64,000 bases of DNA from Candidatus Thorarchaeota archaeon (GCA_048882045.1 JBHLRZ010000007.1:49935-113934), one strand, 5' to 3'. Counted from the stretch's first letter, positions 48,373 through 64,000 are shown. Notes: generated from the letters alone by a model not told the origin. A program made the numbers and translations.

Positions 48373-51300
48373 TCAATGATATTTGTGCTTGCAATGGATG
48401 AAACTATGCCAGTGCCACCACTTTCTATGTAACCAGCAGGGACGCAATCCCTTTGTCGCATCATATATCTGACCATCGTCTACGGGCATAACAAATCCGC
48501 ATCGCTTTTTATGATGTGGCACATAGACAAGAACAGAGCCAATGGTTTCACCACCTCTCCCATCTGAGGCAAGGAATGTAATTTCATAGACCCGGCCATT
48601 GCCGCATCCAGACCTCTGAGCCCTCAGCCAAGCTGTATCGGATCCGACACCATATGCATCTGGCCACAATCCAACGAACTCGTCACTCGTGATGTTCAAG
48701 ATGGTGATGGTAACATCATCGCCATCTGGGTCTGTGACACCTTCTATAGCTATCTCTACAAATTTGCCATTAGGCGGCCACAAGAACTGAACACTTGGGA
48801 CTGCTAGTGTCACATTTGGAGGTTGGTTGTATGTTTCCGCACCAGCTCCAAAGAATGACAGGTGCTTCACATAAGCCCATACGTAACCAGCATATGACTC
48901 ACCAAACCGGACCACATCCGTTGTGTTAACTCCGCAGTCGACAACCCAATCCATCTCAACAGAGAGTTTTTCCCATATACCAGTAGACTCATCGAGCCAA
49001 TACAGACCAATCTTAGATTCATCAAGGTCTTCCATATCGTTTGGCAGTCCATCTCCTGTACGGTCTAAGTCAGCTGTTCGATAGTACAACCTGATGTAGG
49101 TGACATTCATGTTTTGAGTTCCATCACCCAAAATCAACTCTGTATCAAGATACGTGCCTAGAGAGTATTCATAGGGCATTAGTCCCGTTGAACTATTCAG
49201 GATATATGGTGTCGATTGATCGTCATATCTGCAAATGGTCATCTCCGGTGCAGCTACCTCGTTCAAGGATACCTGGATGATTGCATCAGTATGCTTCAGT
49301 GTATCAATCTCATTCACCATGAAGTAGATACTATATTGACCTTCAGCATATTTGAATGCAGGAAGTGTGCTGTACTCCAAAAATACTGAGTCAGGATATA
49401 CAGTTACGTTCTTTCTGTTGAAGATGTTAATGACTCTAAAGACATCTGTCGTCTGTGCCTCAGAGAACATGATGATCGTTTGTGTCTCATTCCAGACACC
49501 ATATCGCACAACATACTCAAGTTCCCCAGAGGCAAGCATGTCCACAGTTGCACCGCAGTCAACCAATAGATCTGCGATTAGAGACCCAACTGTTCCATCC
49601 ACATCGTAGGGATTACCAATCAGAATTATCCTGCTTGAATTCCTATAGTTGACAAAGAACTCCTCCAAGGTCACATTTGAAACAGTCATCTGCTCAGCGA
49701 GCAAGTCACCAAACAGAATTGATTCAGGAGTCTCATCGTACACCAGAACTACATCTGCTTCTTTTAAGAATCCATCGTACATCTCAGGAGTACTGTAGTT
49801 GCTCAGAGGGCTCGTTCCAGCCTCTAGCTCGATTCCGTCAAGACTACCATCGTTATCAGTATCATTACAAAGTGGGTCCATGTGGAGTAAAACTTCTAAT
49901 CCGTCAGTCACATTATCGTGATCAGAATCGTCATTATTTGGATCTGTACCAAGATAGATCTCAGCAGAATCTAGTAATAGGTCATTATCGGAATCGTTGC
50001 TCCAAGGATCCGTTCCCAAGACCAACTCAGTCCCATCGAAAATGAAATCGTTATCTGAATCGGGTGATAACGGGTCAGTTCCTGCATCGTTCTCCTCTTT
50101 GTCACTTGCCCCATCGTGATCAGTATCAAAATTCCAGGGATCAGTTCCCAATTGAAATTCCAGTGGATCTAGCAAACCATCGCCATCAACATCCGGATTT
50201 AATGGGTCGCTACCGAAGTTGAGTTCTGTGCCATCATCTATTGTATCGAGATCAGAATCAAAGTGGATGATGTTCAAGCCAAGACGGAGCTCGTCTGGAT
50301 CTAAAACGCCATCTTCATCAGTATCGACGCTTTGAGGATTGGAACCTAGTAGCCACTCGTCATAATCTGAAATACCATCAAAATCGCTATCAGCTAGATA
50401 GATGGAGCTATTCACGTGGACATCTGTTCCATGCGCTGTTGTGATTGTAATGGTCCAACCATTAAGCTCAGTTGTATCGCTCAAATCATCTTGGTCCCAA
50501 TCAGTGACATCATCCTCAAGGTCAGGTCTCACGATGATCAGGGTCTCCCTGAACTTGATGACATGAGTCGGATTAGCCACGTATATGTAGCCTTCGTCAT
50601 CAACATCTATTGTCAAAGGATTGTCTACCTCAAGTGTCGCCTGCCAGATGAGTTCATTATCGAACTTCACAATACGGTTGTTTCCACTGTCAGCGATGTA
50701 GATATTCCCCTCTGCGTCCACTGCTACATCAGTCGGTGTGTTGAGAGGAATACCATCCGCAGATAATATTGGTGGTAGACCATTTGCGAGTACGCCACTT
50801 GAGTCAAATATACACACCTTATTTCCGCCAGAGTCTGCAACATAGATGAGACCATTTGGTCCGACATCGATTCCTCGAGCTTGCTCAAGCTCGCTCCATC
50901 CGAAACTGTCCTGAAGACCCCATGTGCTTTGGCTATACTTACGAATATTGGATAAATCACCATCAAAGCATGAAAGATAGACTGAACCTCCTCCTGAAGC
51001 CATTCCCCAGATTTGGTGAAGAGGAGTATAACCCATACCACCATAATCTGGTATCCCCCTAGTGAGAATGATGTTGCCAAGCGAATCACTCACGGTGAAA
51101 CTTTCCCATGTTCTGTCAGCATTGAACTCAAAGAAATACTCCCAATTTGTTTGAGGCGTAGATGGAACTATGACCCAGCCTAATGTATTAACCCAAATGG
51201 TTTTGCCATCCGGGCTAATTTGCACTCCCTGTCCAAAGCGATTCCCCAGTCCATAGACTTGATTTATTACAGGGAGGGGATTTGATATCTTAGACACCAG

Positions 51301-54300
51301 TTTCCAAGAGGTGCCAATCTTCTCAAAGACAAATGCAGCTCCCTTATGCGAATCATATCCAGGTGCGCCAACCACAACAGTGTTGCCAGCATTATCAATG
51401 GCAACCGAATGACCAAACTCAGATTCATCTGGCAGACCTGGAACCTCTAGGCGGGTCTCATACCAAGTGTACCCATCAGTCTCACACACATATGCATATC
51501 CAGGTGCAGAGTCAACGTATGGACTCAGTACCTCTACATGCTCATGAAACGGTGCACCAACAACATATGTGTTCCACCCAGGTACCGAGTCATGCGAATA
51601 TCCAAATTGGTCGCGTATCATTTGACCTGGCCCAATTTTATCTGTTGCCTGCCAATATTCATAATTACCTGGCCACCATAAAAGAGAGCTATCATACCAG
51701 TCAGTAACAGGGCCATCTGGAAAATAACCCCACATATAGTACCTACCGTAAATATCGAGATAGTACTTGCGTACTATACCCTTGTGAGCTGGAGAACCAA
51801 GAACGCTACTGTCACCAGGATTATACGCGCCTACGGTGAGTCTTGTGTTTTTATAACCTGGGTCGCGCTCTACTTTGATAGAGTATATCCACCTTCCTTT
51901 CATCTCGAGATCAGGGACTACTCCACAGTCGGCCTTGTCCGGAAATTGGTTTACTCCACCAAGCCATGCATATGGTTCAATATGGCCACTAGTACGTAAA
52001 CACCATTCAATAACTGAACCACTCGCAACAGTACCGTCCATATATTGCATGCTAGCAAAGATCCTATATTCCATACCTGAATTAGTAGAATCACCTATAA
52101 TGGCAACACAGGCACCCATTATCCCATTGGCTAATGGACCAAAAACCGCAGTTTTAAACATCCAGCTTGAACCTGATCCTTGGAAGATATACACTGCTCC
52201 CTGATTTACTGGTGCAGGATTGCCATCATAATATATATCCCACCATATTGGGAACCTGCTCTCTTGTACACCAGAAGCAGTTGGAGCCCCAACGACAATG
52301 GTTGTTCCATCGCCAGAAATTGCCACCGAATAGCCAAACATAGGCGCAACTGCTCCTCCATCCCAGTCAATATATTGCACACCGCAAGTGAGAAATGTTT
52401 GAAATGTCCAAGTGCCCCCAATTTTTTCATAGATGAATGCCAAGTTTCGACCAGGATCACCTACCACCATTGTGTTACCAGCATCATCAATAGCCATAGA
52501 AGGAAGATTGTTGGGAAGAGTTCTATCGGGTGTATTAGGGATAGACAACTCAGCAGCCACTCCAGCCAAATCATTTGGAGTTGATGATATATTTACAATC
52601 CCTATTCTTCCATCTTGAAATGTTGTTAGGGCACTGGTATGTGTAGGACCATAGGTTCCAAGTCGTTCACCCTCCGAATCGTACTTGATGATATTGTCAT
52701 TGTCGGTGACATAAATATTCCCAGCATTATCAAAGGTTATATCAAGAGGATTACTCCCAACATTGGTTCTTCCAATAGTCCACTCTTGCTCAAACTCGAT
52801 ATATCTCGGAGGTCCTTCCACATCAATTATTGAATCTCCATTCGTGTCTTGTGAACATGGATTGAGACCATCCCGTCGCTCAATGAAGTCACTGACTGCA
52901 TCGGAGTCAGTATCATTCATTCTTGGGTTAGAATGTGCAATGATTGTGAAAGGCAAGAGTGGGTCATTCAAGTAATTGAACTGAATCGTATCACCAGAGA
53001 TTTCGAGGTAATCTCGGAGTCCATCGAAGTCAGAATCAGGGTTTGTAGCGTTAGTACCATAGACTAGCTCATATTTATCATTTAAACCGTCAAAATCTGA
53101 ATCCACCTCAAGTGGATTAGTTCCAATCTCCATTTCGAATTTGTCAGATAATGCATCGCCATCTGAATCAAATTTTACAGGGTCGGTATCTGTCTCCTCA
53201 GTATTTGGTATCCCATCACAATCGAGGTCGAGAGGAGTGATAAGGCGCCAGTCTGCAAAGGCATCGATAGTGTCGGGAAGAACATCGATGTAAATAGTAA
53301 AGCTCCCTATATCGTCATATGACTCTTGATGACTGTGATGAGTTATTGGGACGCAGAATAACCAGTATGTCCACTCATAGTAGAGCTGTGTAAATGTCTG
53401 TACTCTGATATTCATTGGAAAATTAGGCATAGCAGTACTTGGTACAGCCCAGACGCCAGAATCATATTCAACACTATTGTAGTAATACGGAGCATCAATC
53501 CAGTCTGCAGTCGGTCTGCTGCTTGGAATTGGAAGATAGACGTTTTCCCAATTGTACATGATTCCAGCTATGTAGATTGGATCGTAGAGCAGACCTACAT
53601 CTGAAGATGAACCATAAGGAGTCTCGATGAGATAGTACGGATAGACATCACTCTTTTCGACATCTCCTTCATGCTTGCCATACCAAATCCCACGCAGGAT
53701 TCCTCTGAATGTCAGTCTGTCACCCACTGTCACTCCATTGTTAGTCCAATCATCAATAATGAGTTCTTGATCTTCATCATACTCAAGGAGCGGATAGACC
53801 TGCGAGTCAACTGAAGAAATACCATCTATGATTTCATCAAAGAGCTTACCAATTAGGTCGGATAGAGTGGTAGTCCCACACCAACCAAGTATAATATCAA
53901 TAATGGAAAAGATAGCAACAAAAGCTGCACCATACGGATTCTGAGAGATGGCAATCAACATCAGGTCTTTGATGTATCCCATGAGTGTCTTGAGCAAAGC
54001 TTGAGTGAGCTGAAGGGGATTCAATCCGCCCTGCGTAATTGCAATGACTCCGTAGATGGTCACACCCACGTCTATAGCTATTGCTATAGCATCGAAAACA
54101 CCACCTATACTCTTCCAAGTCTTCATCAAACCGGTCTTTGCTTTTCCAATCGATTTGAACGCAAGTTTCCATTCCTTAAAGACACTCGTGGCTGCTTGCT
54201 TTCCCTGAATAGAGACTCTCCAACCTGCTTTTATCATGCTATGAAAGCTTTCAACAGACCGCTGTGCAATCCTATAGGCTTCAATTGATCTGATCAGACC

Positions 54301-56325
54301 CTTACGAATCAAAGTAAATACTGAGATACTAAAATCAGTAATTGCATGAGCCCAATTGACTATGTCCTCTAAGGGGATACTATAATCTAAATTCACTGAA
54401 GACAGATCGGTTGCAACATTTTCTCCAGATAACCAGTAGAGTGATAGGCTCATGACAGTAGCTAGAGTCTCATCATCCAGACCCCAGCTCTCGATTTCCT
54501 CCATAATTTCAGGGGTATCCAAGGATTGATACAAGACTTCACTGTCAATTATTGTGCGGAATTGCCATATGGTCTGCTTGACTTTTTGTGATGTGATATT
54601 TGCAGCACTTGTTATCCCAGTGAATGAATCACCAACCTGACTAAAATCAGAGAGGTCGAGAATTCTGACATAACTCTCTACGCATGTGATAAAGGGATAA
54701 GGTCTATCCATTACAAGTGAATCAAGAGCGTTTGGTATCATATAATTAACAATACTAGAGAGTGCTTCATCCTTCTGATTGAAAGATTGGGTAATGTTAT
54801 GTATGTCCCGACCAAGACTAGAAAGTTCGGATTTTATGTCAAAGACTCCAATGCTCGTATTCCTGAGAAATATCATATCAATAAGTGGTTCTGCGAGTGT
54901 AGTGTTCTGAGGTTCCTCACAATAGAAAATACCTGCTTCAGCACCATAGTCTTCTTCTAACAACAGACCTGTAAGCATGAATGAATCATCGTATCTAGCA
55001 AGTTCTCTTGTTTCTGGAATAAACCCAGCATTTTGTAAGTCAAAGACGCAAACCACTCCGCCCTCGTTTGTGGTCAATTGCCAGTCAACATTCGGTTCTG
55101 TAAGAGCTAGTGGTGAACTTGAAAAATCAGATACAAGGGTGAAGGTTCCTAAACTAGGATCATCTTCAATAACTGTGAACATTTCATTAGCACCAATGTC
55201 CTCACCATTTGCCGCTACATTTCCTTCATTATCCACTGACAAATAGTTCCCATTGAAAAGCTTGATTGCAACCTTATCATTTCCAAGGTCAATCCATTGA
55301 AATGATTGAATTCCACCCGCACCGTCTTCATTGACGTATACTCGACCATCTGCAGCAACAGAGAGATTTCGAGAGAGATTAACTTCAGTAAGTGCAGAGG
55401 CATTTTGATCGGATTGACCAAAGACTTTCCAGATGAGTTTCGCAGTGATACTAAGTTCAGTTGGAGTAAATTCAGGGTAGACCAGTCTTCCACTAAATGC
55501 GACAATCTTGCCATACTGTTCTACCGGAAAGAGTGGAAGTTCAATTCCTTCCGCAGTGATACTGATACCATATTTGATAACATCCATTTGTTCAGGAAGA
55601 GTGGATACGCTGAGTTGTAGCATGGGAACAATGAACACATCAGAATCTGGTTGTCTATGAACATCCATCATATTTCCATGAATATCATAAGGCCAATCCC
55701 AGGTTTGGGATATGAAACTGAGATGAGCTGGATCTTCTGGTACTAACTGGAATGTCATATACATTGGATTCCCATTTGTTTCAATATCAAATGACATTTC
55801 TTCAAAACAGTCAGTACTGCTGAATGGAGAAAGGTCAACACTATCTTCAACACCATCGCCATCATTGTCAAAGTCCCAACCATTGACAATGTTGTCATTG
55901 TCTATGTCTTGGGAGATGGAACCATACAGCTCATGATTGTCTGGGATGCCATCGAAATTCGTATCCGGCTCTAATGGGTCCAAGTCATTAAATATTTCAA
56001 TGTCGTCTCGTAATTGATCGAAATCAGTGTCATTACTCATCCAGTCAGTTCCTATGACTCTCTCAACGGAATCATATATGGTGTCACCATCAAAGTCTGT
56101 TCGATTGTTGAGCGGAGTAACCTCTTGCAGTTGTTCAACAAGATCTCTTATGGAATAGGCCTCTCTAGGAGGTTCGTTGTCCGTTGGAGTTATGTTTTCC
56201 ACGACCTGGGGTTCATTCGAATTCATCAAGCTTGTCCAGGTCTGGATATTATAGACTTCTGCAACCAAGAACATTCCAATACATAGTACTGCAACAGATA
56301 CAGCTATTGCCTTTCGCCTTTGCAT
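48373..56325 (-). CDS. Giant secreted mosaic protein: TSP3-like Ca repeats, fascin-like domain, hydrophobic helical region, NHL and FG-GAP propellers
   Basis: N-terminal signal/TM; many DxDxDGxxDxxE..GTDP repeats; FGYSVAISGDG..IVVGAP and FGHSVAID..VVVGAP; PTDVAVDAEGNIYIADSGNNRI. Confidence 0.85.
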   Translation of the reverse strand: MQRRKAIAVSVAVLCIGMFLVAEVYNIQTWTSLMNSNEPQVVENITPTDNEPPREAYSIRDLVEQLQEVTPLNNRTDFDGDTIYDSVERVIGTDWMSNDTDFDQLRDDIEIFNDLDPLEPDTNFDGIPDNHELYGSISQDIDNDNIVNGWDFDNDGDGVEDSVDLSPFSSTDCFEEMSFDIETNGNPMYMTFQLVPEDPAHLSFISQTWDWPYDIHGNMMDVHRQPDSDVFIVPMLQLSVSTLPEQMDVIKYGISITAEGIELPLFPVEQYGKIVAFSGRLVYPEFTPTELSITAKLIWKVFGQSDQNASALTEVNLSRNLSVAADGRVYVNEDGAGGIQSFQWIDLGNDKVAIKLFNGNYLSVDNEGNVAANGEDIGANEMFTVIEDDPSLGTFTLVSDFSSSPLALTEPNVDWQLTTNEGGVVCVFDLQNAGFIPETRELARYDDSFMLTGLLLEEDYGAEAGIFYCEEPQNTTLAEPLIDMIFLRNTSIGVFDIKSELSSLGRDIHNITQSFNQKDEALSSIVNYMIPNALDSLVMDRPYPFITCVESYVRILDLSDFSQVGDSFTGITSAANITSQKVKQTIWQFRTIIDSEVLYQSLDTPEIMEEIESWGLDDETLATVMSLSLYWLSGENVATDLSSVNLDYSIPLEDIVNWAHAITDFSISVFTLIRKGLIRSIEAYRIAQRSVESFHSMIKAGWRVSIQGKQAATSVFKEWKLAFKSIGKAKTGLMKTWKSIGGVFDAIAIAIDVGVTIYGVIAITQGGLNPLQLTQALLKTLMGYIKDLMLIAISQNPYGAAFVAIFSIIDIILGWCGTTTLSDLIGKLFDEIIDGISSVDSQVYPLLEYDEDQELIIDDWTNNGVTVGDRLTFRGILRGIWYGKHEGDVEKSDVYPYYLIETPYGSSSDVGLLYDPIYIAGIMYNWENVYLPIPSSRPTADWIDAPYYYNSVEYDSGVWAVPSTAMPNFPMNIRVQTFTQLYYEWTYWLFCVPITHHSHQESYDDIGSFTIYIDVLPDTIDAFADWRLITPLDLDCDGIPNTEETDTDPVKFDSDGDALSDKFEMEIGTNPLEVDSDFDGLNDKYELVYGTNATNPDSDFDGLRDYLEISGDTIQFNYLNDPLLPFTIIAHSNPRMNDTDSDAVSDFIERRDGLNPCSQDTNGDSIIDVEGPPRYIEFEQEWTIGRTNVGSNPLDITFDNAGNIYVTDNDNIIKYDSEGERLGTYGPTHTSALTTFQDGRIGIVNISSTPNDLAGVAAELSIPNTPDRTLPNNLPSMAIDDAGNTMVVGDPGRNLAFIYEKIGGTWTFQTFLTCGVQYIDWDGGAVAPMFGYSVAISGDGTTIVVGAPTASGVQESRFPIWWDIYYDGNPAPVNQGAVYIFQGSGSSWMFKTAVFGPLANGIMGACVAIIGDSTNSGMEYRIFASMQYMDGTVASGSVIEWCLRTSGHIEPYAWLGGVNQFPDKADCGVVPDLEMKGRWIYSIKVERDPGYKNTRLTVGAYNPGDSSVLGSPAHKGIVRKYYLDIYGRYYMWGYFPDGPVTDWYDSSLLWWPGNYEYWQATDKIGPGQMIRDQFGYSHDSVPGWNTYVVGAPFHEHVEVLSPYVDSAPGYAYVCETDGYTWYETRLEVPGLPDESEFGHSVAIDNAGNTVVVGAPGYDSHKGAAFVFEKIGTSWKLVSKISNPLPVINQVYGLGNRFGQGVQISPDGKTIWVNTLGWVIVPSTPQTNWEYFFEFNADRTWESFTVSDSLGNIILTRGIPDYGGMGYTPLHQIWGMASGGGSVYLSCFDGDLSNIRKYSQSTWGLQDSFGWSELEQARGIDVGPNGLIYVADSGGNKVCIFDSSGVLANGLPPILSADGIPLNTPTDVAVDAEGNIYIADSGNNRIVKFDNELIWQATLEVDNPLTIDVDDEGYIYVANPTHVIKFRETLIIVRPDLEDDVTDWDQDDLSDTTELNGWTITITTAHGTDVHVNSSIYLADSDFDGISDYDEWLLGSNPQSVDTDEDGVLDPDELRLGLNIIHFDSDLDTIDDGTELNFGSDPLNPDVDGDGLLDPLEFQLGTDPWNFDTDHDGASDKEENDAGTDPLSPDSDNDFIFDGTELVLGTDPWSNDSDNDLLLDSAEIYLGTDPNNDDSDHDNVTDGLEVLLHMDPLCNDTDNDGSLDGIELEAGTSPLSNYSTPEMYDGFLKEADVVLVYDETPESILFGDLLAEQMTVSNVTLEEFFVNYRNSSRIILIGNPYDVDGTVGSLIADLLVDCGATVDMLASGELEYVVRYGVWNETQTIIMFSEAQTTDVFRVINIFNRKNVTVYPDSVFLEYSTLPAFKYAEGQYSIYFMVNEIDTLKHTDAIIQVSLNEVAAPEMTICRYDDQSTPYILNSSTGLMPYEYSLGTYLDTELILGDGTQNMNVTYIRLYYRTADLDRTGDGLPNDMEDLDESKIGLYWLDESTGIWEKLSVEMDWVVDCGVNTTDVVRFGESYAGYVWAYVKHLSFFGAGAETYNQPPNVTLAVPSVQFLWPPNGKFVEIAIEGVTDPDGDDVTITILNITSDEFVGLWPDAYGVGSDTAWLRAQRSGCGNGRVYEITFLASDGRGGETIGSVLVYVPHHKKRCGFVMPVDDGQIYDATKGLRPCWLHRKWWHWHSFIHCKHKYH

Positions 56326-57070: not shown

Positions 57071-57739
57071 TCATGTGTCATCCTTTTCGAAAACCAGAGC
57101 ATATCTGAAGGGATTGCCAACCTTCCGTTGGAGTCTAAAACCTGCTTGTCTCGCCCAGTTAACGACAGTCCTACTCATAGGATAGTCAGGATCTAACAAT
57201 AATTCAGCATCTACAAAGATTCCGTCATCCTTCAAGAGCCGTTTAACTTGAAGCATTGCTCTGATCGGATCAGGAATTTCGGGAATTACTGCAACAGAGA
57301 AGGCTGCGTCAGCAGTTCCATCATCAAGAGGAATGTGACCTTCTGCATCAGCCAACACTGGGATGATGTTCTCAACGCCTTCTGTTTCCATCCTCACCTT
57401 CAGTTTGTCAAGCATTCCTTGTTGAATATCAACTGCAAAGACGAGTCCAGCAGGTTGAATTGCCTTTGCAATAGCAACAGTATAGAACCCAGACCCGCAC
57501 CCCAGCTCTACAATCTCCATCCCGGAGCGGATTTCTAACGCTTCAATGATCATCGATGGCGGTTGTACTCTCGACCTATAAGGACCAGCGGCTATTATAT
57601 TGCCCATTCTTGCAGGCATAGGGAACTTCCAGAAATATCGTACCGACCTGACGCAGACGCACACCCACAAGAACAGAACAAGGAAAATGATCACTATAAT
57701 TTCAATCACCCAGTGTACGCCAGGAAACCAGAAGTCCAA
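57071..57739 (-). CDS. Class I SAM-dependent methyltransferase with N-terminal TM
   Basis: VELGCGSG, AVDIQQGML, ADAE, RLLKDDG. Confidence 0.88.
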   Translation of the reverse strand: MDFWFPGVHWVIEIIVIIFLVLFLWVCVCVRSVRYFWKFPMPARMGNIIAAGPYRSRVQPPSMIIEALEIRSGMEIVELGCGSGFYTVAIAKAIQPAGLVFAVDIQQGMLDKLKVRMETEGVENIIPVLADAEGHIPLDDGTADAAFSVAVIPEIPDPIRAMLQVKRLLKDDGIFVDAELLLDPDYPMSRTVVNWARQAGFRLQRKVGNPFRYALVFEKDDT

Positions 57740-57827: not shown

Positions 57828-58406
57828 ATGAACAGTGAGGAATCTACAAAGCAATTGATTCTGGACTCAGCCTACAACCTCTTCGTTGACAGAGGATTTC
57901 AGGGAAGCTCCATGAGAGATATTGCTGAAAATGCTGGAATCAAAGCCGCGTCAATCTACAACCATTTCGATACCAAAGAACAAATCTTCAAGAAAGTCTT
58001 CGTCGAGAAACATCCATTGTTCAGAATTCTCGAGATCCTTGATAGCGCAACCGGTGCGACTGCAGACGAACTGTTGACAAATGCTTCAAATCGCTTGTAC
58101 AGAGAAATCAAGAATGAACCCAACCTATTGAACCTCTTTTTTGTTGAACTTGTAGAGATGAAAGGTAAACACATTCCTGAGGCAATTATTACAAATTTCC
58201 CACACGACTCTTCATTTATACGTCAAATATTCGAGATGAAATCAGAGCTGAGAGATATTCGAGAACCTGTTCTTGTGAGAGCACTTGTTGGAACTGTCTT
58301 AGCGAACATTATGTTTAGGTGGTTTGTAGGAGATAGTAAACCTAAGAGATGGGGGTCTCAGTCCGAGATGACAGATGTACTTCTGAAAGGTCTTCTCAAG
58401 AGATGA
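57828..58406 (+). CDS. TetR/AcrR family regulator
   Basis: ILDSAYNLFVDRGFQGSSMRDIAENAGIKAASIYNHFDTKEQIF. Confidence 0.93.
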   Translation: MNSEESTKQLILDSAYNLFVDRGFQGSSMRDIAENAGIKAASIYNHFDTKEQIFKKVFVEKHPLFRILEILDSATGATADELLTNASNRLYREIKNEPNLLNLFFVELVEMKGKHIPEAIITNFPHDSSFIRQIFEMKSELRDIREPVLVRALVGTVLANIMFRWFVGDSKPKRWGSQSEMTDVLLKGLLKR

Positions 58407-58501: not shown

Positions 58502-58750
58502 ATGAAGTATCTTATAGAGTGGAAAATGAAGCCGAAATACCGCAAGGACGCTACTAAAGCGACTGAAAACTTCAAGCAGCCTAAGGAAGTGAAGACTGTA
58601 TTTGCTGCCCATTACTGTGTTGCATCGAACAGAGGGGTGGCTATCGTCGATGTTGATGATGTGGTTCACATTCAGAAGGCTCTGAGTCCCATGTTACATT
58701 TCACAGATTTCATTGTAACTCCAATATTACCACTATTCGAAGAGCCTTGA
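58502..58750 (+). CDS. DUF3303-like small ferredoxin-fold protein
   Basis: MKYLIEW...GVAIVDVDD...FIVTPI; ggaggtga RBS. Confidence 0.7.
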   Translation: MKYLIEWKMKPKYRKDATKATENFKQPKEVKTVFAAHYCVASNRGVAIVDVDDVVHIQKALSPMLHFTDFIVTPILPLFEEP

Positions 58751-58875
58751 TTCTAGGGAAAATTTCACCAGAAGGATCTTTTTAGATTCTCAAATTTTTG
58801 CATAAGCTCACTAAAGAAATAGTGATATTCGAGCTATATTACAGAATGTTCAGTTCTTTGTCGCGTGGACAAAGG

Positions 58876-59679
58876 ATGGAGGATTTGATTGTGAAAACAA
58901 GATGGATACATGGAGTTGCGGGATTCACGATGTTTGTTCTCTGTCTTTCAGTGTTTACAAATACCGTAACTGCAACCTTAGTGTGGAGCGAAGATTTTGC
59001 AGACATGACTGACTGGACAACGACAGCCTTCCTAACATGGCAGAGTGGACCGATAATCGCAGGAAATTTCTCTGTTGTCGATGGGAAGTTAACAGTAATG
59101 GATGATGATGTCAACTATGCCCGTCATAACAGCACAGTGGAAGTCGGGACATGGAGCTTTGATCTCTATGTACCAGACACACCAAATGGATATGTGGGAG
59201 TGGCATTCATGTCAAATGGGTCTCGCCCTCTGGACTTCGACTCTAGATGGATAGCTGTTGAGGCTACGACGGATGGGACAGATCGCTTCAATCTCTGGTG
59301 GCAAAGAGGACCGAACAACTGGATTGGTGAGGTCTGCTACACTCCAACTGGGAGCATACTAGGTTGGCATCATATTGATGTCACGAGAACTAGCGGAGGA
59401 CAGATCAATCTATTCTTCAATGGAACTTTCATTTATGATACCCTCACCAACGATGTCATTCATTCAACATACCTTGAATGCTATGGCGTTAATGCCACAG
59501 GCGCAGCTTTCGACAACATCTTTGTTGATGATGAGATCATTATCACACCACCAACAACTCCTCCAAGTACAACTCCTACAGAACCAACAGGCGCAATCCC
59601 ATGGGATCTGGTTGCGATTGCAGGCGGAGTTATAGTAGTCGTGGCTGTGCTAGCAATCGTTTGTGTCAAGCGAAGATAA
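58876..59679 (+). CDS. Surface protein, LamG/lectin-like beta-sandwich, PT linker, TM plus KRR
   Basis: VWSEDF, GTWSFD, GWHHIDVTR, FDNIFV, C-terminal TM-VKRR; paralog of 61725-62882. Confidence 0.72.
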   Translation: MEDLIVKTRWIHGVAGFTMFVLCLSVFTNTVTATLVWSEDFADMTDWTTTAFLTWQSGPIIAGNFSVVDGKLTVMDDDVNYARHNSTVEVGTWSFDLYVPDTPNGYVGVAFMSNGSRPLDFDSRWIAVEATTDGTDRFNLWWQRGPNNWIGEVCYTPTGSILGWHHIDVTRTSGGQINLFFNGTFIYDTLTNDVIHSTYLECYGVNATGAAFDNIFVDDEIIITPPTTPPSTTPTEPTGAIPWDLVAIAGGVIVVVAVLAIVCVKRR

Positions 59680-59695
59680 TAAGAAAACATGAATA

Positions 59696-59729
59696 CGAGG
59701 GTCTCTCGAGGCCCTCTGGCTTTTCTTTC
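59696..59729 (+). terminator. Hairpin plus T-tract ending a cassette
   Basis: GAGGGTCT-ctcg-AGGCCCTC then ggcttttcttt; a related hairpin lies at 62897-62928. Confidence 0.55.
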
Positions 59730-59799
59730 GGATGTGGATAGTGAAGAATTGGAGATTATGCACTAAAAAGAAAAGACCAAATGATTTATTACATAGTAG

Positions 59800-59840
59800 T
59801 TAAATAAATTCTTTTAACTTTATTAAACGAAACTGTTTAA
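59800..59840. promoter_or_regulatory. Operator TTAA-N10-TTAA-N5-TTAA-N10-TTAA upstream of regulator 1
   Basis: TTAA at 59800, 59814, 59823, 59837; identical spacing at 62967-63007. Confidence 0.65.
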
Positions 59841-59857
59841 CTGATAGAGGGAGAATA

Positions 59858-60328
59858 ATGTTCAGTACTCTGCGGTATCCTACGAAGCAGCAGAACCTCA
59901 TCTGGCTTAGGAGGCGTCAGAAGAACAGACCTTCAGAGATTGCTAAGGACCTGAAAATGTCAAGGCCCTATGTTAGTATAGAACAGAAGAAAGCAGAGGG
60001 CCGAATCAGGAAGCTCATGGAACATGCTGCATCAGTAAACAGAGTGACTATAGAACGAATGAGTGCTCGATATGGCATTGCTGAGGGCTACTGTCATGCA
60101 AATAGCTCTGTGACATACATCACATACTCCCCCAAGATCGGTGTGCTGAACTGGTATGAACACATAGGAGATTGCGGTACGTGTGACATAAAGGATCAAT
60201 GCAACGAAGCGCTCTACACATTAGCGGAGGAGTGGGAGATTCATGCGTTTCCAGATATGCCTCCAACAGAGCTAAGTAAGTTTCTGTTTAACACAATCAG
60301 GGGACGACTCAAATGGGACAAGATGTGA
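59858..60328 (+). CDS. HTH regulator (sigma70 region-4/Tfx-like) with C-terminal His/Cys metal site, copy 1
   Basis: PSEIAKDLKMSRPYVS..KKAEGRI; WYEHIGDCGTC....C. Confidence 0.75.
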   Translation: MFSTLRYPTKQQNLIWLRRRQKNRPSEIAKDLKMSRPYVSIEQKKAEGRIRKLMEHAASVNRVTIERMSARYGIAEGYCHANSSVTYITYSPKIGVLNWYEHIGDCGTCDIKDQCNEALYTLAEEWEIHAFPDMPPTELSKFLFNTIRGRLKWDKM

Positions 60329-61728
60329 CGAACCAGACAAGATTTTGTCAGATACCTCAAGGTTCCCAGAAGCATCTAGGCCAACATTTGAGACTTAGAA
60401 CCATCGCGGCTGTGAGTCTAACACTCATGTTGACAACAACCGGTCTAGTGTATTATTTGATGCCAAAATCAATTGCGTATTTTCCATATGAGGAACCTAT
60501 TATACGCACTCCACACGCCACCATAACGATTGATGGGGATGCCAACTTCTCAAATAGGGCTCTGCTAGAAGGATGGCCTGGTGATGGTTCTCCTGAGCAC
60601 CCATTTGTGATTGACGGATTTGAGATTAACAAAGGTGGAGAGACGGGACCCTGTGTATGGATTCGCAATACACGAGTCAGCTTTACAATCAGCAATTGTA
60701 ATATCACTGGAGCTAGTTCAGCATCTGGTTGGCTAAACTTTACTTTTAGCCATTGGGGAGGCGGAATTATTCTAGAGAATGTCACCAATGGTGAGTTAGT
60801 TAACAACACTTGCAACAGCAACAATGAATGGGGTATCCTCCTCTTTAACTCAAAATCCATTACTGTGTCCAACAACATCTGCAATAACAATAAGTATGGT
60901 ATCATCCTCTACGCATATTATGAGTACAACGTGTTCAACACGGTAATCAATAACAGATGCTTCAACAACACCGAATTTGGTATCTTTCTCTCAGTCGGAT
61001 TTTCAGGCTTCCAATGCAACAACACCATATTCAACAACACATGCACCCTCAATGGCAAATCTGGCATCCACCTCAACTACCTCTCGTATTACAACACCGT
61101 AGCGAACAACACCTGTAACAGTAATGGGATCAATGGTATCTCCCTTGAGAGTTCGTATCTCAACACCATAGCGAACAACACCTGTAACAGTAATGGATCC
61201 AATGGTATCGCCCTTGAGAACTCAGATTCCAACATTGTGGCGAACAACACATGTAACAGTAATGAGTTTCGTGGCATTGATCTCTATAGGTCAGATTCCA
61301 ACACTGTGTTTGACAACATATGTAACAGCAATACAGGGGGTATTTACCTCGGAAGGTCGAGTTCCAACATCATAATGAATAACATCTGCAACAACAATGA
61401 GTTCCATGGCATTCTCACCTATGATTCAGATTCCAACACCATAACGAACAACATCTGCCTTAACAACGCCGCAACAACCGAAACGCCAATCCCCACAACA
61501 ACCACAACACCAACCCCCACAACTCCAACCACAACAGCCACCATATCGCCAATGACCACTTCTCCAATTCTTCCGTATATCGGGTTTATAGATATCATAT
61601 TACTCGGCGTTGCGTGGAAATTGCTGTCAGAAAGAAGAGGATTCAACGAATCCTCAACAAGATCAATGATTCAGTTGGGGAAGCGATTGAGAGAGATGAT
61701 GAATACTGAATTGGAGGAGAGAGTATGA
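60313..61728 (+). CDS. Membrane-anchored parallel beta-helix (NosD/CASH) protein
   Basis: N-terminal TM after a short Cys-containing tail, GWPGDGS, about 10 NNxC..N..GI repeats, PT linker, C-terminal TM. Confidence 0.85.
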   Translation: MGQDVTNQTRFCQIPQGSQKHLGQHLRLRTIAAVSLTLMLTTTGLVYYLMPKSIAYFPYEEPIIRTPHATITIDGDANFSNRALLEGWPGDGSPEHPFVIDGFEINKGGETGPCVWIRNTRVSFTISNCNITGASSASGWLNFTFSHWGGGIILENVTNGELVNNTCNSNNEWGILLFNSKSITVSNNICNNNKYGIILYAYYEYNVFNTVINNRCFNNTEFGIFLSVGFSGFQCNNTIFNNTCTLNGKSGIHLNYLSYYNTVANNTCNSNGINGISLESSYLNTIANNTCNSNGSNGIALENSDSNIVANNTCNSNEFRGIDLYRSDSNTVFDNICNSNTGGIYLGRSSSNIIMNNICNNNEFHGILTYDSDSNTITNNICLNNAATTETPIPTTTTTPTPTTPTTTATISPMTTSPILPYIGFIDIILLGVAWKLLSERRGFNESSTRSMIQLGKRLREMMNTELEERV

Positions 61729-62882
61729 TTAAAAAGAAGATGAGTTTTCTCACACTAACATTCGTTCTGTGTTTAATACTTCCAGCTATTTTCGTAGCGC
61801 CTGAAACAAGCCACACGAGAACCATGGAAGATATCATTGGCAATCAGGATGCTTTCGCGATCAGTCAGGAGGTAGTGTGGTCAGATGACTTTGATCATGG
61901 AAACATCACTGAAAGTGGATGGAGTGTCCAAGGATTCAGTCCAGCTTATCCTCCATGGACGAAGATCCCTGGGAACATCACAGCTGATGACAAAACACTG
62001 CGTGCTTATGGTCCGTACTGGAATGAAGCATGGCGGACAAGTAACGTGGCTTACGGCTCGTGGGCTTTTGATGTCCACTGTGTAGACACTCCAACTAGAC
62101 GTAGTTATATTGCATTTGTATCTGCAAGTCCCGTGGTGGATCCTCCGAATATTTATTCAATGCCATTCGAGTATGGTATCATCACAGTTGTGGGTTATTA
62201 TGAGGGTTATACTAGTGCATTCCTCCTGTACCGTAGACCCTCAACGACTCCGTATTTATCTGTAATAGGAGATTATGATGTGGCAGACGTTACTGGATGG
62301 TGGCATATCAATATCACTCGAGATTATAATGGCAACTTCAATGTCTATTTTAATGACACTTTGAGAATCACAGCCAATAATTCGGATCACACAACAAGCG
62401 ACCTGTTCACATTCACTGCTGAAGCTGGAAATGCACTCGACAACATAGTTGTTGTTTCCTATCCAGATGTTTATGGTCCAAATATTACTAATCCTGTTCG
62501 GACTCCCTATGCACCAAACTCCACTGAGTCTGTGTTAGTGAATGTCGACGTATTTGATCCTTCAGGCGTTGACGCGGTCATACTCTCATACCACCATGGC
62601 ACAACTTGGATTAATATCACGATGAACTCGACTGGATCTGATTATGAGGGTACTATCCCTGCACTTCCTAATGGGACAGATGTACAGTACCGGTTCTATG
62701 CTAATGATACCATTGGCAACTGGGCTGATTATGAACCAGATAGCTACACTGTAGAAGACCTCCCAGGCCCAACGCCTACAACCCCACGCACAAGTTCAGT
62801 TCCATTGGATCCAATCTTTATTGGAGGGGGAATCGCACTAGTTTTGATCGTCTTAGTTGTGGTGTTTGTCAAACGTCGCTAG
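61725..62882 (+). CDS. Surface protein, LamG/lectin-like plus Ig-like domain, TM plus KRR
   Basis: VWSDDF, GSWAFD, GWWHINITR, LDNIVV, D.SGV..VILSY..YRFYANDTIGN, TM-VKRR. Confidence 0.75.
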   Translation: MIKKKMSFLTLTFVLCLILPAIFVAPETSHTRTMEDIIGNQDAFAISQEVVWSDDFDHGNITESGWSVQGFSPAYPPWTKIPGNITADDKTLRAYGPYWNEAWRTSNVAYGSWAFDVHCVDTPTRRSYIAFVSASPVVDPPNIYSMPFEYGIITVVGYYEGYTSAFLLYRRPSTTPYLSVIGDYDVADVTGWWHINITRDYNGNFNVYFNDTLRITANNSDHTTSDLFTFTAEAGNALDNIVVVSYPDVYGPNITNPVRTPYAPNSTESVLVNVDVFDPSGVDAVILSYHHGTTWINITMNSTGSDYEGTIPALPNGTDVQYRFYANDTIGNWADYEPDSYTVEDLPGPTPTTPRTSSVPLDPIFIGGGIALVLIVLVVVFVKRR

Positions 62883-62966
62883 TAAAATAAAAAAGTGGAG
62901 AGCCTCTCGAAACCCTCTCCTATTTCTTAGCGTATGCCAACTAAAGCAGAACTTATAACGAAGTAG

Positions 62967-63007
62967 TTAAAGAGTTTAGGTTAATTCTGTTAAGGTATTC
63001 GCGTTAA
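62967..63007. promoter_or_regulatory. Operator TTAA-N10-TTAA-N5-TTAA-N10-TTAA upstream of regulator 2
   Basis: TTAA at 62967, 62981, 62990, 63004. Confidence 0.65.
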
Positions 63008-63024
63008 CTCAGAAGGCGTGAAAT

Positions 63025-63495
63025 ATGTTCAGATACCTTCGATATCCAACAAAACAACAGGGGCTCATCTGGCTCAGGCGGCGTCAGAGGGAGAGACCTT
63101 CAGACATCGCCAAGGAGTTGAAGGTATCACGACCATTTGTCACTATGGCACAGAAGACAGCAGAGAATCGGATCCTCAAGCTCCTACAGCATACAGCGTC
63201 AGTCAATCGAGTAGAGATTGAGCATCTCAGTACACGATACGGCATAGCCAAGGGGTACTGCGCTGCCCAAGATGCAGACACCTACATCTTCTATTCTCCA
63301 AAGATCGGTCTTCAGATCTGGTACGAACACGAGCGTGATTGTGGTACATGCGGTACTGAGGACCAATGCACTAAGACACTTCGAACACTGGCAGAGGAAT
63401 GGGAGATCCCTCTTCCGGACTACAGACCTCCAACAGAACTCGGTATTTATCTCGTTGACATAATTGGGAGGCGGATGAAGTGGAATCGAACTTAG
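63025..63495 (+). CDS. HTH regulator with C-terminal His/Cys metal site, copy 2
   Basis: LRYPTKQQ.LIWLRRRQ, WYEHERDCGTC....C; same length as copy 1. Confidence 0.75.
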   Translation: MFRYLRYPTKQQGLIWLRRRQRERPSDIAKELKVSRPFVTMAQKTAENRILKLLQHTASVNRVEIEHLSTRYGIAKGYCAAQDADTYIFYSPKIGLQIWYEHERDCGTCGTEDQCTKTLRTLAEEWEIPLPDYRPPTELGIYLVDIIGRRMKWNRT

Positions 63496-64000
63496 AAAAC
63501 AAGTCAAGAATCTGTCCTGTTCCGCCAAGGTCCAGGATGGGTCTGAATCTAGGTTTGAGACCTAAACCTATCTTCATGGCTGTGAGTCTTGCACTCATCT
63601 TGACAATGTGGATACGTATACCACTAGTAATTATGGCTCCACCACTCATTTCACACGACCCCATAACGATTGATGGGAATGCCAACTTTTTGAACACAGC
63701 TCTGCTAGAGGGATGGCCTGGTGATGGTTCTCCTGAGAACCCGTTCATAATTGACAGGTTGGAAATTGACCTTGGTGGAGCACACGATCGATGCATAAGT
63801 ATCAGCAATACGCGAGTAAGCTTCATAATAAGCAACTGCAATCTCACTGGTGCTTATTATGGAATCAGCCTAGAGAATGTCACAAACGCCAAGCTTGTCA
63901 ACAATACCTGCTCCAGCAATACCATAGTTGGTATTGAACTCCGTGACTCATATCTAAACACCATAGTCAATAACATCTGCAGCAATAACAACTGGGTTGG
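63480..64000 (+). CDS. Membrane-anchored parallel beta-helix protein, copy 2 (runs off the window; not in ORF track)
   Basis: Open frame from GTG 63480 (or ATG 63537): ...RICPVPP...TM...HDPITIDGNANF...[13 protein letters not shown]...NNTC; paralog of 60313-61728. Confidence 0.8.
   Translation, partial: MESNLENKSRICPVPPRSRMGLNLGLRPKPIFMAVSLALILTMWIRIPLVIMAPPLISHDPITIDGNANFLNTALLEGWPGDGSPENPFIIDRLEIDLGGAHDRCISISNTRVSFIISNCNLTGAYYGISLENVTNAKLVNNTCSSNTIVGIELRDSYLNTIVNNICSNNNWV

Follow-up and report, generated by a model that had tools for sequence, protein, structure and literature searches.

A regulator gene overlapped by the gene of a cysteine-tailed membrane protein in Thorarchaeota: a candidate transmembrane signalling module with exchangeable outer domains

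The 64,000-nt stretch of Candidatus Thorarchaeota archaeon analysed here (GCA_048882045.1 JBHLRZ010000007.1:49935-113934, hereafter the window; G000:C7:49935-113934 in our working labels) closes with two tandem cassettes, all parts of which lie on the + strand. The second cassette is interrupted by the contig end, which is also the end of the window. Each cassette starts with the gene of a small putative regulator with a helix-turn-helix (HTH) domain, here called REG, whose 3' end is overlapped by the gene of a membrane protein, here called the partner, with a single cysteine in a short N-terminal tail ahead of its first transmembrane (TM) helix. This pairing was found to be conserved in nearly all REG homologues, while the part of the partner that follows the TM helix has been exchanged many times. 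The source genome consists of 3.6 Mb in 93 contigs. Close homologues of the studied genes are found in metagenome-assembled genomes of Thorarchaeota, 'Promethearchaeota', Sifarchaeia and Hermodarchaeota, and the host is accordingly an Asgard archaeon of the Thorarchaeia group.

The order of the transcription unit is REG, partner and lectin-like surface protein (Table 1), and a Shine-Dalgarno (SD)-like GGGGA lies 8-9 nt ahead of the ATG of partner 1. Comparison of the two cassettes showed 63% identity between the REG proteins (E 2e-73), 48% between the partners over 196 aa and 27% between the lectin-like proteins (E 4e-13), the copies being true paralogues. The block formed by the TATA-like box and operator of the second cassette (62953-63008) recurs almost unchanged in 12 or more orthologous loci from other genomes, and hairpins resembling hairpin 1 were found at the equivalent place in the related loci L006, L018, L020 and L024. 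An earlier reading made from the sequence alone (the sequence-only reading) had described the order lectin-like protein, hairpin, operator, regulator and beta-helix protein, repeated twice. All of these parts are where it had placed them, but the first lectin-like gene belongs to no cassette visible in the window: no GTTAA motifs, and hence no operator, were found upstream of it, and it stands alone. That the beta-helix reading frame starts 16 nt within the 3' end of the regulator gene was confirmed for both copies, as was the conserved R-(F/I)-C of the tail, which reads RFCQIPQ in the first and RICPVPP in the second.

Table 1. Features of the two cassettes at the end of the window (positions counted from the first nucleotide of the window).
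Feature	Position	Strand	Description
Lectin-like 1	ORF (open reading frame) 58798-59679, probable start 58876	+	Homologues align from about residue 28, which fits start 58876
Lectin-like 1, predicted architecture	58876-59679	+	Signal peptide, ConA-like beta-sandwich (lead), Thr/Pro stalk, C-terminal TM helix, then KRR
Hairpin 1, terminator-like	59697-59716, with T-rich tail to 59726	+	GAGGGTCTC-loop-GAGGCCCTC
TATA-like box 1	59785-59791	+	TTTATTA; TTATTA/TTTATA element at a conserved distance from the start codon in related loci
Operator 1 (putative)	59799-59841	+	Two palindromes, GTTAA-N10-TTAAC and ATTAAAC-N6-GTTTAAC
Operator 1, TTAA cores	59800, 59814, 59823, 59837	+	Spacing 14-9-14
REG1	59858-60328	+	156 aa; sigma-70 region-4/Tfx-like HTH (residues 1-60) and alpha+beta domain with H102, C106, C109 and C115
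Partner 1	60313-61728	+	471 aa; starts 16 nt inside REG1, -1 frame
Partner 1, predicted architecture	60313-61728	+	N-tail MGQDVTNQTRFCQIPQ, basic linker, TM helix, right-handed beta-helix ectodomain, Thr/Pro stalk, C-terminal TM helix, charged tail
Lectin-like 2	61725-62882	+	385 aa; third gene of cassette 1; ATGA, 4-nt overlap with the stop codon of partner 1
Hairpin 2, terminator-like	62897-62920	+	Followed by T-rich tail
TATA-like box 2	62953-62959	+	TTATAAC
Operator 2 (putative)	62966-63008; TTAA cores 62967, 62981, 62990, 63004	+	Four GTTAA cores, spacing 14-9-14
REG2	63025-63495	+	156 aa; 63% identical to REG1
Partner 2	63480-64000	+	Tail MESNLENKSRICPVPP, TM helix, beta-helix; 16-nt overlap with REG2; incomplete at contig end

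The locus set for comparative analysis comprised 80 loci (one genome per species), 30 loci from a scan of 400 genomes of the phylum and eight from a distant family, and the pairing was counted on the 90 distinct REG proteins whose genes are followed by 250 nt or more of sequence. In 87 of these, REG is followed by a membrane-protein ORF with a Cys-bearing N-terminal tail, an association beyond chance. An 88th locus is masked by N bases and still reads NPCPLTP, and the remaining two REG homologues (2/90) had no partner. Whether the regulator orthologues always precede a TM protein with a Cys-bearing tail, as had been asked of them, can thus be answered with almost always (87-88/90). The partner ORF overlaps or abuts REG at 85 of the 87 loci, the other two beginning 7 nt and 94 nt downstream; the commonest overlaps are 16, 10, 28, 13 and 4 nt, within a range of 1-47 nt. 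Exactly one Cys precedes the first TM helix in 86/87 partners. The tail consensus is [ST]-R-[AVI]-C-[PRQ]-[ILV]-P-P, and Met1 and the tail Cys are the sole invariant residues in 76 aligned partners.

Four canonical REG genes were found in the source genome, two of them in the window and the others at C44:10054-10518 and C42:14177-14638, together with one divergent relative. The C44 and C42 genes are also overlapped by membrane-protein genes, with the tails SRVCQIPP and EACPIPP, respectively, and the ectodomains of these partners are beta-propeller-like instead of beta-helix. The C44 copy (L002, G000:C44:8554-12018) has no promoter of its own and overlaps an upstream gene for a 198-aa membrane protein, itself preceded by another membrane-protein gene, indicating that this copy is located inside a longer operon. 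REG pairs about 2-4 kb apart on one contig were detected in many other genomes (L007, L008, L011 and L013; G361:C36, G366:C151, G372:C23, G377:C78 and G379:C289), suggesting that the tandem arrangement is old and not a recent duplication. A typical Thorarchaeota cassette, in which REG shares 76% identity, the operator is the same and the tail reads RFCQIPS, is also present in a record titled 'Candidatus Zixiibacteriota bacterium bin1014 chromosome' (L010, CP070839.1:261779-270246). Its partner gene is broken into two ORFs of about 100 aa each, probably by a frameshift, and the taxonomy or the assembly of this record appears doubtful.

The pairing extends beyond the canonical family. In a family matched by REG at E ~1e-40, the pairing, the ATGA overlap and the Cys tail are kept (PVCLKHP, FICLEPP), and more remote REG relatives (E 1e-18 to 1e-33) also retain the Cys tail (YCRIF, YCRLF, EWCRNP) and ATGA overlaps. 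A single REG homologue without the Cys motif (L131; n = 1) has no membrane partner, and a scan of the phylum with P0183 for Cys-less REG relatives returned the Cys-bearing family only. A sister subfamily is represented in the source genome by L005 (G000:C1:227936-231190; ORFs 1321-1977 and 1978-2712), which encodes a 218-aa REG-like protein with an insert within the Cys motif (H...C-x2-C-x5-C with extra residues). Its next gene directly encodes a bPH_2-domain membrane protein without a Cys tail, and the same pairing occurs in L128 and L130, which belong to other families.

Three observations indicate that the Cys tail, which extends for about 25-50 residues before the TM helix, is translated and cytoplasmic. 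An SD-like tetramer was found 4-16 nt before the partner start at 79/87 loci, compared with 4/87 in a control interval 60 nt upstream; this ribosome-binding motif ahead of the upstream start argues that the tail is translated. The codon for the tail Cys varies synonymously (TGT in 49 cases and TGC in 38), indicating selection at the protein level. The mean net charge of the tail is +3.6 against -2.3 for an equal length after the TM helix, a positive-inside pattern that points to an N-in topology. A heme-regulatory 'CP' motif was considered as the defining feature of the tail and discarded, Pro following the Cys in 43/87 tails only.

The outer part of the partner is highly variable. Both partners of the window are right-handed beta-helix proteins: partner 1 matched Beta_helix PF13229 (E 2.9e-30, 105 bits) and NosD PF05048 (E 2.2e-27, 96 bits), with TIGR03804 repeats in eight stretches and the beta-helix models above their curated cut-offs, and partner 2 scored 27.8 and 26 bits for beta-helix and NosD, also above curated cut-offs. 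Over the whole set, the regions after the TM helix group into 16 unrelated clusters, including beta-propellers (29), beta-helices (24), a class of about 650 aa with 6-7 TM helices (13) and a small two-TM class (5), and the singletons include SBP_bac_5 and lectin-like domains. The Pfam scan of 76 partners returned Beta_helix, NosD, P1_N, Pect-lyase, SBP_bac_5 and a few others. At least 24 changes of ectodomain class have to be assumed on a maximum-likelihood tree of the 87 REG proteins, and the starred branches of this tree alone force 9-10 changes between beta-helix and propeller.

REG proteins more than 85% identical can carry different ectodomains, and the tail motif follows the REG clade (RICPVPP, EACPIPP, RACRLPK and others). 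Where the REG proteins are at least 80% identical, the segment from the initial Met to four residues past the Cys (Met..Cys+4) is 59% identical between partners of differing ectodomain class and 68% between those of the same class, and it is about 30% identical where the REG proteins share less than 70%. The linker and TM helix, by comparison, are 26% identical between differing classes and 48% within the same class. Since Met..Cys+4 tracks REG and the linker and TM helix track the ectodomain, the exchange boundary can be placed directly after C-x-x-P-P. The constant unit is then REG plus about 16 tail residues, and the variable unit the linker, TM helix and outer domain. Such modular swapping of ectodomains fits the logic of a transmembrane signalling pair. 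The sequence-only reading had further proposed that the outer domain senses a glycan, for which no support was obtained, as the ectodomain can be of any of the 16 classes, polytopic membrane proteins included. Glycan binding would be possible for the beta-helix, lectin-like and SBP_bac_5-type ectodomains; the ectodomain is not of one class throughout, and a large one is missing from several partners.

No Pfam family was assigned to REG. Weak matches were obtained to the sigma70-ECF (extracytoplasmic function) region 4 model TIGR02937 (E 8e-4; 19 bits against a cut-off of 42.9; residues ~7-57), to Tfx (E 1e-3) and to EnfR, and the Tfx model TIGR00721 scored 19 bits against a cut-off of 60.25, with residues 9-57 alone aligned. 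An AlphaFold2 model built from 31 sequences (predicted local distance difference test, pLDDT, 90.3) contains helices at residues 10-20, 25-32 and 36-60, four strands between 63 and 100, and helices at 112-125 and 136-151. Residues 1-60 of this model superposed with VIA-align on many sigma region 4 domains (Z 4.3-5.9, root-mean-square deviation, rmsd, down to 0.9-1.9 A) and on EnfR (Z 5.1, rmsd 1.9 A, 33% identity over 51 residues). The best whole-chain Foldseek match was EnfR 8hnp (probability 0.96, E 0.057, template modelling score 0.35-0.38), and a PDB profile search recovered 8hno at E 0.17, in the HTH region only. These profile matches and superpositions uphold the likeness to sigma70 region-4/Tfx HTHs that had been noted from the sequence. 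The C-terminal domain modelled alone reached a pLDDT of 93 and had no convincing fold match (best Foldseek E 0.12; best VIA Z 4.0), EnfR not being matched. Taken as modelled, REG appears Tfx-like in its HTH and overall layout without being a member of the Tfx family. No Sigma70_r2 match was found in 31 REG members; the lack of region 2, together with the archaeal host, indicates that REG is not a sigma factor.

The alpha+beta domain carries a putative metal site. H102, C106, C109 and C115 are invariant in 31 aligned REG homologues, so that the H..C..C....C pattern of the sequence-only reading can be given exactly as H-x3-C-x2-C-x5-C. This is the spacing of the His-ligated [4Fe-4S] clusters N5 of NuoG/Nqo3 and FS4C of [FeFe]-hydrogenase (CpI). 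Sub-threshold matches to PF10588 (NADH-G_4Fe-4S_3) were observed in 15/31 REG proteins (best E 0.006; 13-17 bits against a cut-off of 27). The first half of the motif (H-x3-C-x2-C) also equals the zinc motif of the ZAS anti-sigma factors. The site may therefore hold either zinc or an iron-sulfur cluster, and the 'Zn' of the sequence-only reading was an assumption.

Nearly every REG gene that heads its own transcription unit is preceded by the same layout, composed of a TATA-like element (TTATTA or TTTATA), TTAA-core repeats, an SD motif and the start codon. In the REG clades of the window the repeats are palindromes of the GTTAA-N10-TTAAC type or four GTTAA cores; deeper Thorarchaeota clades have two copies of GTTGC(A/C)-N8-GGTTAAC, one abutting the TATA box and the other just ahead of the start codon, and the repeats of the distant family are GGTTAACC-N6-GGTTAC. 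The 14-9-14 spacing of the cores in the window would correspond to two dimer-sized sites about two helical turns apart. Sister families carry SRQTVNK in place of SRPFVS as recognition helix, and their palindrome downstream of the TATA box is GTAAGCC..GGCTTAC, a covariation that would be expected of a regulator that binds its own promoter.

Dense GTTAA/TTAAC clusters are rare in the source genome, with five sites of which two are REG promoters (C7 and C42), and GTTAA-N10-TTAAC occurs four times in the whole genome, twice at the two promoters of the window. The search of this genome for a wider regulon returned few clusters elsewhere (C1:30941, C17:49109 and C25:15480) and isolated motif matches (C11:76763, C17:7295 and C24:43455), none of them before an obviously related gene. 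Two of these sites, G000:C24:43455 and G000:C1:30941, are promoter-like, with GGTTAA-N10-TTAACC or five/six GTTAA/TTAAC cores; one precedes a gene for a 469-aa membrane-anchored protein and the other a gene for a 190-aa protein, and these sites could be additional REG-family targets or coincidental matches. In archaea, a regulator bound between the TATA box and the start codon usually keeps the polymerase from being recruited, EnfR being one example. Given that the putative operators lie in this interval, autorepression of the REG operon is more probable than activation, as far as their position suggests. The proposal that a released regulator switches on the surface proteins is accordingly less likely than derepression.

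At least 14 loci have a lectin-like homologue as the next gene after the partner, be the latter a beta-helix or a propeller protein. These proteins are composed of a signal peptide, a domain of about 200 aa, a Thr/Pro stalk and a C-terminal TM helix followed by KRR; in the distant family a similar lectin-like domain is the partner's own ectodomain. An Atlas structure search with lectin-like 2 gave a weak lead to the ConA-like sandwiches of 3-keto-disaccharide hydrolase (3keto-disac_hyd) and GH16 (template modelling score 0.64 by target and 0.43 by query) and also to immunoglobulin-like domains, and a weak CBM_56 match was found. The name lectin-like is thus a reasonable lead, not a finding.

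Only a few Asgard families possess REG. When 1.84 billion representative proteins were scanned in full with HMMER, no more than 152 clusters reached E <= 1e-3. The family is present in 108/400 genomes of the phylum: 74/85 in the family of the window, 16/19 and 13/22 in two others, sporadically elsewhere, and 0/135 in the largest family sampled. The number of REG matches per genome is 1-8, a paralogous expansion typical of sensor families. The homologues are named 'hypothetical protein' in the databases, except for one 'transcriptional regulator', and no description of the module was found in the literature on Asgard Tfx, on Thorarchaeota anti-sigma or transmembrane proteins, or on archaeal membrane sequestration.

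Other genes near the cassettes include one for a 2650-aa surface protein with NHL, FG-GAP, bacterial TSP3 calcium-binding repeats and an FRG1-like domain, located just upstream on the opposite strand (48373-56325, -). A TetR-family regulator gene (57828-58406, +; TetR_N E 1e-15) is divergent from a gene for a class I S-adenosylmethionine methyltransferase with an N-terminal TM segment (57071-57739, -), and is followed by a gene for a DUF3303 protein (58502-58750, +). No link of the TetR, methyltransferase and DUF3303 genes to the cassettes was seen.

The explanation that we consider probable is that each cassette is an autoregulated operon for a two-protein transmembrane signalling module, so far met in only a few Asgard families, in which the partner tail docks REG. 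REG would be a soluble transcription factor that most likely occupies, in dimeric form, the two TTAA-core palindromes found between its TATA box and start codon and that, to judge from the operator position, would repress its own operon. The partner would be an N-in membrane protein translationally coupled to REG through the overlap and its own SD motif within the 3' end of the REG gene. In the cytoplasm, the first ~16 residues of the partner, with the invariant Cys, would serve as a cognate docking peptide for REG, perhaps via the metal centre, and, depending on the state of the outer domain, REG would be either retained at the membrane or left free to occupy DNA. Should REG act as an autorepressor, its capture at the membrane would derepress the operon and lead to more sensor, REG and lectin-like surface protein. 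Release of REG by regulated proteolysis, as for RsgI, is possible; three Peptidase_M50 (site-2 protease) genes are present in the source genome, and M50 also occurs in all 14 control genomes, hence these genes indicate nothing specific. The outer part would be exchangeable, being a beta-helix here and elsewhere a beta-propeller, a polytopic protein of about 650 aa, or a solute-binding or lectin-like domain. A more specific version can be offered only tentatively: an Asgard-specific signalling class in which the single invariant Cys of the docking peptide captures or releases a Tfx-like factor with a His-Cys3 centre, possibly a His-ligated [4Fe-4S] cluster, and in which receptor bodies are exchanged by recombination right after the docking motif. 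If true, one regulator lineage could be rewired to many external cues.

Several observations weigh against a signalling module of this kind. No fusion of REG and a membrane protein was found among the longer database proteins (an apparent 592-aa fusion in L123 was rejected, being produced by a run of N in the scaffold), the invariant H, C, C and C of REG already form a complete metal site without the tail Cys, and the direction of regulation is read from the operator position only. Some partners are small or polytopic with little ectodomain, which is a poorer fit to a sensor. The co-segregation of tail and REG could come from linkage plus a recombination hotspot, since adjacent genes are co-inherited. 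The last point and the self-sufficient metal site also favour the possibility, which we regard as unlikely, that REG is merely an autoregulator dedicated to surface-protein operons, with the membrane protein as its cargo and a tail that serves targeting or insertion, processing or modification, or metal or lipid attachment and never touches REG: linkage alone predicts that tail and REG co-segregate, the operon also holds a lectin-like surface protein, and many partners are anchored at the C-terminus, as common surface proteins of Asgard archaea are. However, a targeting signal need not stay with one regulator family down to REG E-values of 1e-18 to 1e-40, and the tail is missing from the co-transcribed lectin-like proteins. 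It is instead the sole constant part of otherwise unrelated membrane proteins, polytopic ones included, and the strict translational coupling suggests a 1:1 stoichiometry.

REG could also be mainly a cytoplasmic redox, oxygen or iron sensor, with a His-ligated [4Fe-4S] cluster of the NuoG N5/FS4C type whose state controls DNA binding, and with a partner that only modulates or localises it. The identical motif spacing, the PF10588 matches in about half of the REG proteins and the host, an anaerobic sediment organism (sediment metagenomes), agree with this possibility, although every one of those matches is under the Pfam cut-off and the spacing fits zinc sites too, such as that of ZAS. As it gives no account of the invariant coupling to a Cys-tailed membrane protein with variable ectodomains, we consider it improbable as the main function of REG; it is compatible with part of the signalling module proposed above. 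The partner lies in the -1 frame relative to REG at nearly all loci, as a programmed -1 frameshift would require to fuse both into a one-component regulator of the ToxR/CadC type. Such a mechanism is very improbable, since the overlaps of the window contain no slippery heptamer, the overlap length varies from 1 to 47 nt and is lacking at two loci, the partner has its own SD motif and start codon, and the longer database proteins include no fused form. Hardly credible, finally, is that the Cys tail is an annotation artefact and the true start lies downstream, leaving the hydrophobic segment as an ordinary signal peptide, a possibility that the sequence-only reading had raised against itself. 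An in-frame ATG between the Cys and the TM helix, which would allow it, exists in 20/87 partners and is absent from 67/87; the SD-like motif precedes the upstream start, the Cys is invariant despite synonymous codon variation, the charge bias accords with a cytoplasmic tail, and the motif is conserved at the protein level even in the remote REG relatives.

To our knowledge, very little has been established on how information crosses the membrane to reach the transcription machinery in Asgard archaea, the prokaryotes most closely related to eukaryotes. Sigma factors are absent from archaea, and we know of no archaeal counterpart of the bacterial sigma/anti-sigma route. The module is compact, with 1-8 copies per genome and with regulator, operator and membrane partner all clearly recognisable, and its parts could be expressed in E. 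coli for direct tests. The sharp swap boundary after the Cys-Pro motif would be a natural example of sensor rewiring, and could guide the design of chimeric receptors.

Among known systems, the pairs of an ECF sigma factor and a single-pass anti-sigma factor, such as SigI/RsgI of Clostridium thermocellum or CnrH with the short class II anti-sigma CnrY, share with the REG module a small DNA-targeting protein with an HTH of the sigma-region-4 type. In these pairs too, the gene that comes next is translationally coupled, and its product spans the membrane once, N-in, with a short N-terminal tail in the cytoplasm and a sensor outside that varies; the operon is autoregulated and several paralogous pairs occur per genome. 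RsgI paralogues likewise vary in their outer carbohydrate-binding modules (PMC10328401, PMC12203970). The SigI/RsgI analogy drawn in the sequence-only reading is thus fair as logic, but does not extend to membership: REG lacks region 2 and belongs to an archaeon with TBP/TFB-type transcription, which makes it a transcription factor, and neither RsgI_N nor any other anti-sigma domain was found among the 76 Pfam-scanned partners, only the ~16-residue Cys-Pro motif. In contrast to the ZAS factors, H-x3-C-x2-C is located on the HTH regulator and not on the anti-factor, and the partner tail holds a single Cys. In contrast to promoter recognition by sigma factors, the operators lie downstream of the TATA box, pointing to repression.

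In E. coli, the repressor Mlc is sequestered at the membrane by PtsG (EIICB-Glc), the transporter that it regulates. If REG is an autorepressor titrated by its partner, both systems would have in common that the signal state of a membrane protein governs whether repressor is free and that the gene of this membrane protein is a target; the proteins are unrelated and the likeness is one of analogy only. The outer domain is linked to a cytoplasmic HTH across one membrane span in ToxR, CadC and ArnR as well (PMC10269533), but in the REG module the HTH and the membrane span are separate polypeptides at every locus.

EnfR (TON_1525) of Thermococcus onnurineus (PDB 8hno/8hnp) binds as a dimer to a 36-bp pseudo-palindrome at a promoter and represses it, and its authors suggest an anti-repressor partner, no ligand domain being evident (PMC10570040). 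Like REG, it is an archaeal protein of about 150 aa in which an N-terminal sigma4-like HTH with a long helix 3 is followed by a C-terminal alpha+beta domain, with the same order of elements (PMC10570040); unlike REG, it has no His-Cys3 site, and no coupled membrane partner is reported for it in PMC10570040. The ECF sigma/anti-sigma pairs are therefore the closest system in logic and Tfx/EnfR the closest in parts, of which the HTH alone is demonstrably related. The module of regulator and membrane-anchored partner follows a known kind of logic and is built from undescribed, Asgard-specific parts.

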